64,000 nt of DNA from Lama guanicoe (taxonomy: Eukaryota). The DNA lies in NCBI GenBank assembly GCA_013239625.1, contig MU053304.1, positions 992,001 through 1,056,000 on the forward strand. The letters run 5' to 3'. Positions 1,878 through 1,993 of this stretch are shown piece by piece. Position numbers and translations under genes: made by a program. Numbering within the stretch: the first letter of the stretch is position 1; each line of letters starts with the position of its first letter. Below the pieces are notes generated by a model that did no database searches, was not told where the DNA came from, and was given only the letters and a program-made list of their open reading frames with translations.

Positions 1878-1993
1878 TCACAGGGATTCAATGATGTAGT
1901 AGGCAGCTCCCAGGGCCCCCAGAGCCACAGCAACAGTCCCGAGGGCTTGGAGCACGCGAATTACGATGAGCGGAATGTTTTCTTGTAGGTCTT
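1878..1993 (-). CDS. Alternative (+1) frame of SPATA3 exon 3 encoding a putative C-terminal transmembrane anchor (E)[37 protein letters not shown]
   Basis: The frame is open from the same acceptor to TGA at 1880-1878 (end of ORF 1878..2234). It is entered by any phase-1 donor and contains an uncharged run of about 22 residues near the C-terminus. Confidence 0.55.
1888..1993 (-). CDS. SPATA3: SPATA3 coding exon 3, canonical frame (R)[34 protein letters not shown]
   Basis: Acceptor ttttgcag|AAGAC at 1994/1993, with phase-2 entry matching exon 2. The translation matches the recalled SPATA3 C-terminus (..CGSGG..SCLLHH*). TGA at 1890-1888. A strong donor CAG|GTACGT at 1850/1849 suggests a further non-coding exon. 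Confidence 0.92.

Follow-up and report, generated by a model that had tools for sequence, protein, structure and literature searches.

CDKN2A (INK4a/ARF) and GNAS (XL-alpha-s/ALEX) are the textbook cases of dual coding, and Sec61-beta, cytochrome b5 and members of the Bcl-2 family are examples of tail-anchored proteins. The subject of the present analysis is an exon in which both themes come together: exon 3, the final coding exon, of the sperm gene SPATA3 in Lama guanicoe, contained in a window (the whole stretch of DNA that was analysed) of 64,000 nucleotides (nt) from contig MU053304.1 (assembly GCA_013239625.1, positions 992,001 to 1,056,000). In its canonical frame this exon encodes a Cys/Gly-rich tail, and in the frame displaced by one base (the +1 frame) it encodes a hydrophobic tail with the anatomy of a C-terminal membrane anchor. 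We consider it quite likely that this is an alternatively spliced dual-coding exon in which the +1 anchor frame is the older one, coming from a C2orf72-like protein, and in which both frames are under some constraint.

The closest described system is human SPATA3. An isoform that lacks exon 2 and has a frameshifted C-terminus is credited to Zhou et al. 2019 in a later paper (PMC7920483; here and below, statements about cited work refer to the available parts of each text). The same paper uses the name "exon 1bis" for the corresponding mouse and human exon, states that it is not known how abundant the exon-2-skipped form is, and reports that a first knock-out, targeting exon 1, spared other isoforms. 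In a second study (PMC12284469), a TMHMM helix is restricted to the exon-2-skipped isoforms I3 and I4, and SignalP gives no signal peptide in any human isoform. N-terminal fusions to green fluorescent protein (GFP) were mostly cytoplasmic for I3 and I4 (87.5% and ~100% of cells) and nuclear for I1 and I2 (PMC12284469). The exon-2-skipped isoform and its predicted helix are already annotated and published, and the +1 isoform as such adds nothing new. What may be new is that the alternative frame is ancestral and the canonical frame an overprint; our literature search, which covered listed papers on C2orf72 and the available parts of PMC7920483, PMC12284469 and a preprint on dual-coding regions discussed below, returned no paper that states either. 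DUF4630, the domain that proves central to this question, is not mentioned in the searched literature, and the C2orf72 papers among those listed are, by title, expression or association lists.

The features of the locus are collected in Table 1. On the minus strand, exon 3 is bounded by a strong acceptor (ttttctgctttgctttgcag/AA), which reads ...tttgcag/AAGACC at 1994/1993, and by a consensus donor, CAG/gtacgt, at 1850/1849. The canonical tail, read from 1992, ends in ...CLLHH, and the third frame of the exon meets a stop after 10 codons. The uncharged run in the +1 tail is 22 residues long and is followed only by ESL; the maximum mean Kyte-Doolittle hydropathy over 19 residues (KD19) is 2.12 for the +1 tail, as against 0.14 for the canonical tail. 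Both stops fall close to the exon 3 donor, 38 nt (canonical) and 28 nt (+1) upstream of it. The leading E of the 38-residue +1 peptide is the junction codon g/aa, whose g is supplied by both of the available phase-1 donors (7215 and 11722). The first-pass annotation, made from the letters of the window alone, had described one acceptor (1993) leading to either a Cys/Gly tail or a +1 tail, an uncharged run of about 22 residues ending 3 residues before the stop as in a tail-anchored protein, and stops less than 50 nt from the donor at 1850, and all of these descriptive statements, including the positions of the two stops, are correct.

Table 1. Coordinates of SPATA3 exons and of the reading frames of exon 3 in the window
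Feature	Positions	Strand	Remarks
Exon 3 (dual-coding exon, 144 nt)	1850..1993	-	acceptor ag 1995-1994, donor gt 1849-1848
Exon 3 canonical frame: 34-residue Cys/Gly-rich tail and stop (1890-1888)	1888..1992	-	phase-2 entry from exon 2
Exon 3 +1 frame: 37-residue tail and stop (1880-1878)	1878..1991	-	phase-1 entry upon exon 2 skipping
Predicted transmembrane segment of the +1 frame, residues 13-34, VLQALG...AAYYII, then only ESL	1890..1955	-	hydropathy; helix at the equivalent stretch of the P0013 model
Exon 2, 175-nt cassette (3n+1)	4083..4257	-	inclusion or skipping determines the exon 3 frame
Exon 1, coding part, 385 nt; ATG 7599-7597; phase-1 donor CAG/gtgggc	7215..7599	-	SPATA3-family N-terminus with repeats
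Exon 1bis, alternative first coding exon, 826 nt; ATG 12547-12545; phase-1 donor ATG/gtgagg	11722..12547	-	C2orf72-like (DUF4630-like) domain

The choice between the two frames lies upstream of exon 3. Exons 1, 2 and 1bis, the last of which sits 4 kb upstream of exon 1, measure 385, 175 and 826 nt, all 1 mod 3, and have consensus splice sites. Either first coding exon (exon 1 or exon 1bis) closes in phase 1, and this, together with the 175-nt length of exon 2, means that skipping of exon 2 shifts exon 3 into the +1 frame. In a transcript that retains exon 2, exon 3 would be entered in phase 2 and yield the soluble Cys/Gly-rich tail of SPATA3; in one that lacks exon 2, it would be read one base further on and yield the 38-residue tail, the last 25 residues of which would form the hydrophobic helix plus ESL. 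Joined in silico, exons 1+2+3 encode 221 amino acids (aa), exons 1+3 encode 166 aa, exons 1bis+3 encode 313 aa and exons 1bis+2+3 encode 368 aa, and the 313-aa product would end in the +1 tail. The 221-aa and 166-aa products read exon 3 in different frames, as the dual-coding proposal of the first-pass annotation has it, and each shows a single difference (position 20) from the Vicugna pacos SPATA3 isoforms X1 (P0025) and X2 (P0003), respectively. Membership in the SPATA3 family (Pfam PF15662; cut-off 27 bits) is recorded for P0003 (67.6 bits), P0008 (273 bits) and P0023 (205 bits), all above the cut-off. A separate observation concerns the intron ahead of exon 3, where the +1 frame stays open for 80 more codons upstream of the acceptor, making a stop-to-stop open reading frame (ORF) of 118 aa (1878-2234, minus strand).

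A protein search with the +1 peptide returned 297 candidates, of which 23 reached E<=1 and were sorted by their sequences. Exon 1 followed by the tail accounts for seven of the 23 (two Vicugna entries including pacos X2, Balaenoptera ricei X3, Tursiops X5, Homo sapiens CRA_a, Lemur catta X2 and Cricetulus griseus), and exon 1bis followed by the tail for nine (Meles, Marmota, Onychomys, Chinchilla, Acomys, Neomonachus and three further entries). Two more (Pongo X1, P0008, and Neotoma, P0023) have exon 2, extra residues and then the tail, one (Camelus ferus) is a hybrid gene model, and four are short ORFs that enter from the intron. The contigs that carry two of the long proteins, P0012 and P0016 (300+ aa), measure 1068 and 1078 nt, and that of P0013 measures 2901 nt; all three are far too short to hold the unspliced gene and must represent spliced transcripts. 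In a later profile search, two Phyllostomus species, Microtus, Hipposideros, Zalophus and Dugong also proved to have long forms that end in the tail. The +1 frame is annotated as Vicugna pacos isoform X2, and no fewer than 15 further named entries from mammals have it too; rodents, whales, a dugong and primates all retain the tail together with its stop. The human +1 tail (P0007) differs from that of the window at 6 of 37 positions. The Pongo and Neotoma proteins reach the anchor from exon 2, as if via an upstream acceptor or a retained intron, and splicing variants besides exon 2 skipping can therefore end in the anchor too.

The +1 tail carries a hydrophobic segment of ~20 residues near its end with a short remainder after it, as in tail-anchored proteins, and by eye the N-termini of the +1-tailed products are basic and hydrophilic. 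A protein of this kind, apparently lacking a signal peptide and with one predicted helix, at its C-terminus, would be inserted post-translationally into an internal membrane as a tail-anchored protein, leaving its N-terminal part in the cytosol. The helix is Ala/Gly-rich and moderately hydrophobic and its three-residue end is acidic, and for this reason the target membrane cannot be named from these features.

To place the anchor in its structural context, we turn to the AlphaFold model of the long isoform P0013 (55 aligned sequences; mean predicted local distance difference test score, pLDDT, 62.8). The first half of the model is disordered and is followed by a confidently predicted beta-alpha-beta-alpha-beta-alpha core at residues 186–281, with block pLDDT values mostly of 82–96 (78 at the N-terminal edge), and then by a floppy linker and a terminal helix at residues 308–336 (block pLDDT 59–67). 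The core, which is the DUF4630-like part of P0013, is a three-layer alpha/beta domain in the model, and a conserved N-terminal motif, VLL.GE.W (P0013 residues 55–62), probably adds a strand to it across a long disordered insert. The best fold match of the core is 9edr_G (Z 8.5, root mean square deviation 2.9, 110 aligned), followed by small GTPases and flavodoxins at Z 6–8. This is a common alpha/beta arrangement and no function was drawn from the match; no P-loop-like motif was noticed by eye.

Evidence on the origin of the anchor comes from the domain that precedes it in the long isoforms. The Pfam profile PF15443 (DUF4630, the C2orf72 family; cut-off 25 bits) is matched above the cut-off by the orthologues P0018 (27.9 bits) and P0020 (25.8 bits) and below it by P0013 (23.4 bits), P0011 gives no match, and the match spans only positions 2–70 of the 155 in the profile. 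A further view is given by a profile built from seven long isoforms and exon 1bis of the window, which was searched against 1.84 billion representatives. It retrieved 93 proteins at E<=0.001, and several of the distant ones are DUF4630-like with C-terminal hydrophobic tails. The tailed distant homologues come from echidna, platypus, turtles, geckos, iguanians (Sceloporus), lacertids, snakes, skinks, agamids, Varanus and others; named C2orf72 homologues retrieved by the profile and word-index searches come from turtles, lizards, snakes, a crocodile and amphibians. The best ESM Atlas scores, 0.76–0.80, were to DUF4630-bearing clusters and lie below the level at which they would exceed a lead.

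That the tail itself, and not only the domain, is homologous is indicated by three comparisons. First, BLASTP joins P0013 and the turtle (Pelodiscus) protein P0171 in one alignment (E 2e-21), which covers the domain and continues through the tail. Second, an alignment of 12 sequences, from placentals to reptiles, shows a tail with two invariant Gly and a near-invariant Tyr. Third, a hidden Markov model (HMM) of 21 placental +1 tails, run on a target set of 288 proteins and 5760 tail-shuffled controls, matched four monotreme tails (E 1.4e-6 to 5.4e-4) and none of the 80 tail shuffles made from the monotreme proteins themselves.

In a tree built after removal of the last 45 residues of the tailed proteins, the protein from echidna falls together with the long isoforms of placentals (Shimodaira-Hasegawa-like approximate likelihood ratio test, SH-aLRT, 93; long branch), and C2orf72-type proteins without an anchor form a clade of their own (SH-aLRT 97), three chimeric models excepted. 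In this anchorless clade two rows were identified as amphibian, and the mammal-type rows were grouped by their C-terminal sequence. In the three chimeric models, P0146 (Neovison), P0149 (Spermophilus) and P0254 (Marmota), an exon 1bis-type N-terminus, nested in the placental SPATA3-long clade, is joined to a C2orf72-type C-terminus (...EELALT..FPNGDCED...), and they are either read-through from SPATA3 exon 1bis into the adjacent gene C2orf72 or merged gene models.

We reconstructed exon 3 DNA from paired canonical and +1 proteins as the DNA that is consistent with both and closest to the window (a minimum-distance reconstruction); pairs with no DNA fitting both frames, which were mixed-genus or indel pairs, were dropped before counting (7 of 18 in the first set and 1 of 12 in the second). 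Substitutions were counted by the Fitch method on an assumed tree and placed in three classes, namely those at +1-wobble positions, those that change both frames and those at canonical-wobble positions, with p comparing the first class with the third. For the half of the exon that encodes the anchor the counts are 19, 4 and 8 (p=0.052), which is the opposite of what canonical-frame constraint alone predicts. Amino-acid changes, canonical versus +1, number 25 versus 12 in the anchor half and 20 versus 24 in the other half. Among 58 distinct canonical tails, variants of the anchor half that are silent in the +1 frame are enriched (26:17, as against 48:71 possible; p=0.008). At the level of single residues, the differences N/D, G/C, S/P and R/G that the first-pass annotation had attributed to canonical first-codon positions, the wobble positions of the +1 frame, are all of this kind; the colobus tail P0131 carries all four, and over the stretch that holds them the human +1 tail P0007 differs from that of the window at one residue. 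Both frames appear to be constrained, the evidence of selection being modest to weak.

Several observations weigh against a constrained anchor frame that is older than the canonical one. The counts above come from 11 taxa, of which six pair proteins of the same species or genus and five pair proteins of two genera within one family or clade, and when only the six strict taxa are kept the anchor half gives 8, 3 and 5 (p=0.58). The N-terminal half gives 10, 11 and 14 (p=0.54) and the whole exon 29, 15 and 22 (p=0.40), so that the suggestion in the first-pass annotation that selection acts on the +1 frame stands as a trend in the anchor half (19 versus 8) and does not extend to the exon as a whole (29 versus 22). 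When the variant test is turned round and applied to 23 +1 tails, the result leans to canonical-frame constraint (10:10, as against 45:75 possible; p=0.26), and conservation is good for the canonical tail as well as for its stop. On the side of homology, the exon 1bis ORF of the window scores 22.7 bits with PF15443, below the cut-off, and the tail HMM fails to reach the reptile tails, which are too diverged. As to the transcripts, the camelid exon 1–exon 3 and exon 1bis–exon 3 junctions are putative, being drawn from the sequence, the NCBI model X2 and relatives; no Vicugna long protein (exon 1bis plus tail) was found among the database matches; and the product of exon 1bis that is commonly recorded for Mus musculus runs on into the intron (P0274, 41 contigs). 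At the protein level, untagged human I3 and I4 were undetectable by western blot, and their localisation was determined without a membrane marker (PMC12284469).

How the two frames came to share an exon may be pictured as follows. The +1 frame would originally have encoded the anchor at the C-terminus of an ancient C2orf72-like (DUF4630) protein, an architecture that would persist in the exon 1bis–exon 3 isoform, and exons 1 and 2, together with the reading of exon 3 that they bring, would be a later addition, which is placental-only among the named matches. A search with the 57-aa exon 2 peptide matched 140 SPATA3 proteins, and every named row among the 120 listed is a placental mammal; no marsupial sequence was present among the named matches of the homology searches. 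We regard it as somewhat more probable than the opposite that the canonical SPATA3 frame is the younger, a placental internal start exon and the 175-nt exon 2 having overprinted a Cys/Gly reading on a tail-anchor exon, with both frames now constrained. We infer this order of origin from protein comparisons among placentals, monotremes and reptiles.

A first alternative accepts the anchor and confines its function to the long exon 1bis–exon 3 protein, the exon 1–exon 3 product being a minor splicing passenger. This is possible and, on present evidence, rather doubtful. The deep relatives of the tail all have the DUF4630-like domain and not SPATA3 exon 1 sequence, and the long forms make up nine of the 23 matches plus further rows of the later search, as would be expected if the anchor belonged to the long protein; the western blot result (PMC12284469) and the unknown abundance of the exon-2-skipped form (PMC7920483) agree with a minor role for the short one. 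It is harder to reconcile with the seven of 23 matches that are exon 1 plus tail models and that span camelids, whales, primates and a hamster, with the shifted localisation of GFP-tagged I3 and I4 relative to I1 and I2 (PMC12284469), and with the retention in exon 1 of a phase-1 donor like that of exon 1bis.

A second alternative holds that the +1 frame is a by-product of the Cys/Gly codon make-up and that exon 2 skipping is noise whose product is degraded. The single sequence is compatible with it: when the 34 canonical codons of the window were shuffled 20000 times, the +1 frame was open in 6803 of the shuffles, and in 2601 (13% of the total) it was comparably hydrophobic as well (KD19 >= 1.9); Cys, Gly, Ser, Pro and Leu codons shifted by one base tend to give G, V, A or L. 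With 13% of shuffles matching, single-sequence significance was dropped as evidence for the +1 frame, the reality of which rests on comparative evidence, the single sequence being insufficient. Further points in favour of the by-product view are that most human dual-coding regions have been called splicing by-products that give disordered peptides (bioRxiv 10.64898/2026.02.24.707805) and, again, that untagged I3 and I4 escaped detection by western blot (PMC12284469). Against it, placentals retain the +1 tail, stop included, the monotreme match goes beyond composition, a homologous domain lies ahead of the tail in reptiles, and canonical-wobble sites in the anchor half change less than +1-wobble sites (8 versus 19). 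We regard this alternative as largely refuted and very improbable.

To the reading with which the first-pass annotation began, that of a hidden, unannotated and unnoticed +1 tail anchor under selection, we give next to no credence: the sequence features are as it described them, but the words "hidden" and "unannotated" are refuted by the annotation of the frame in a camelid (Vicugna pacos X2) and in many other species and by the human isoform and its helix already in print (PMC7920483, PMC12284469).

Three further features of the locus deserve mention. The coding sequence of exon 1 contains, on the minus strand, a 27-nt tandem repeat of 3.9 copies with 72% matches (7453-7558) and a 6-nt repeat of 7.3 copies (7397-7440); human exon 1 has a copy-number polymorphism of a 27-bp repeat that another group had mistaken for alternative splicing (PMC7920483). 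The frame of exon 1bis stays open for 22 codons beyond its donor (stop 11656-11654, minus strand), and many database proteins continue in this way (...TQTDGEGPEGG...), among them isoform X3 of Mus musculus SPATA3 (P0274) and the camel-like Logan transcript P0273; retention of the intron after exon 1bis may be a common product. Finally, positions 10001-14000, which span exon 1bis and its surroundings, are the most GC-rich part of the SPATA3 region (0.56-0.58 in 2-kb windows) and may contain a CpG-island promoter of the long isoform.

The reading of exon 3 as an older anchor frame with a second frame laid over it can now be set against the systems with which it has most in common. The nearest in architecture are the C2orf72-like proteins of monotremes and reptiles (echidna P0184, platypus P0214 and P0225, turtle P0156 and P0171, gecko P0155), which have their parts in the same order as the exon 1bis–exon 3 product: a short conserved N-terminal strand motif, a variable linker, the alpha/beta core, a second linker and, at the C-terminus, a helix with conserved G...G..Y. 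They differ from the placental long forms in sequence (identity 22–38%), the squamate forms continue for ~25 residues beyond the helix, and none of the named monotreme or reptile tailed proteins has SPATA3 exons 1 or 2. C2orf72 proper, in mammals and amphibians, has a different, non-hydrophobic C-terminal domain. The tail-anchored class as a whole shares with the +1 product a hydrophobic segment at the extreme C-terminus, followed in SPATA3 by 3 residues, and an N-terminus that by eye is hydrophilic, the putative SPATA3 segment being distinguished by its Ala/Gly-rich, moderately hydrophobic composition.

Human SPATA3 I3 and I4 resemble the corresponding product of the window gene in joining exons 1 and 3, in their frameshifted C-terminus and in their TMHMM helix; in the available parts of the papers that describe them, the term "tail anchor" is not used, no link is made to the exon 1bis–exon 3 or C2orf72-like proteins and the age of the frame is not addressed. 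Work on SPATA3 has centred on the Cys/Gly-tailed form, and I1 and I2 were the isoforms detected and followed in PMC12284469. Exon 3 also encodes a conserved predicted membrane anchor, apparently older than the SPATA3-specific exons, and the assignment of phenotypes needs isoform-specific reagents and mutations.

The dual-coding regions catalogued in mammals (bioRxiv 10.64898/2026.02.24.707805), in the main text of which SPATA3 is absent, are like exon 3 in being short, in being confined to a single exon, in depending on upstream exon choice and in rewiring the C-terminus. In the available parts of that work their non-canonical frames are usually disordered or stop early, whereas that of SPATA3 gives a predicted ordered helix and is apparently the older frame. 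If this order of origin is true, the locus would be a clean case of overprinting in a mammal, with the frame that the database calls "alternative" as the ancestral one, and a useful test case for scoring selection in overlapping frames.

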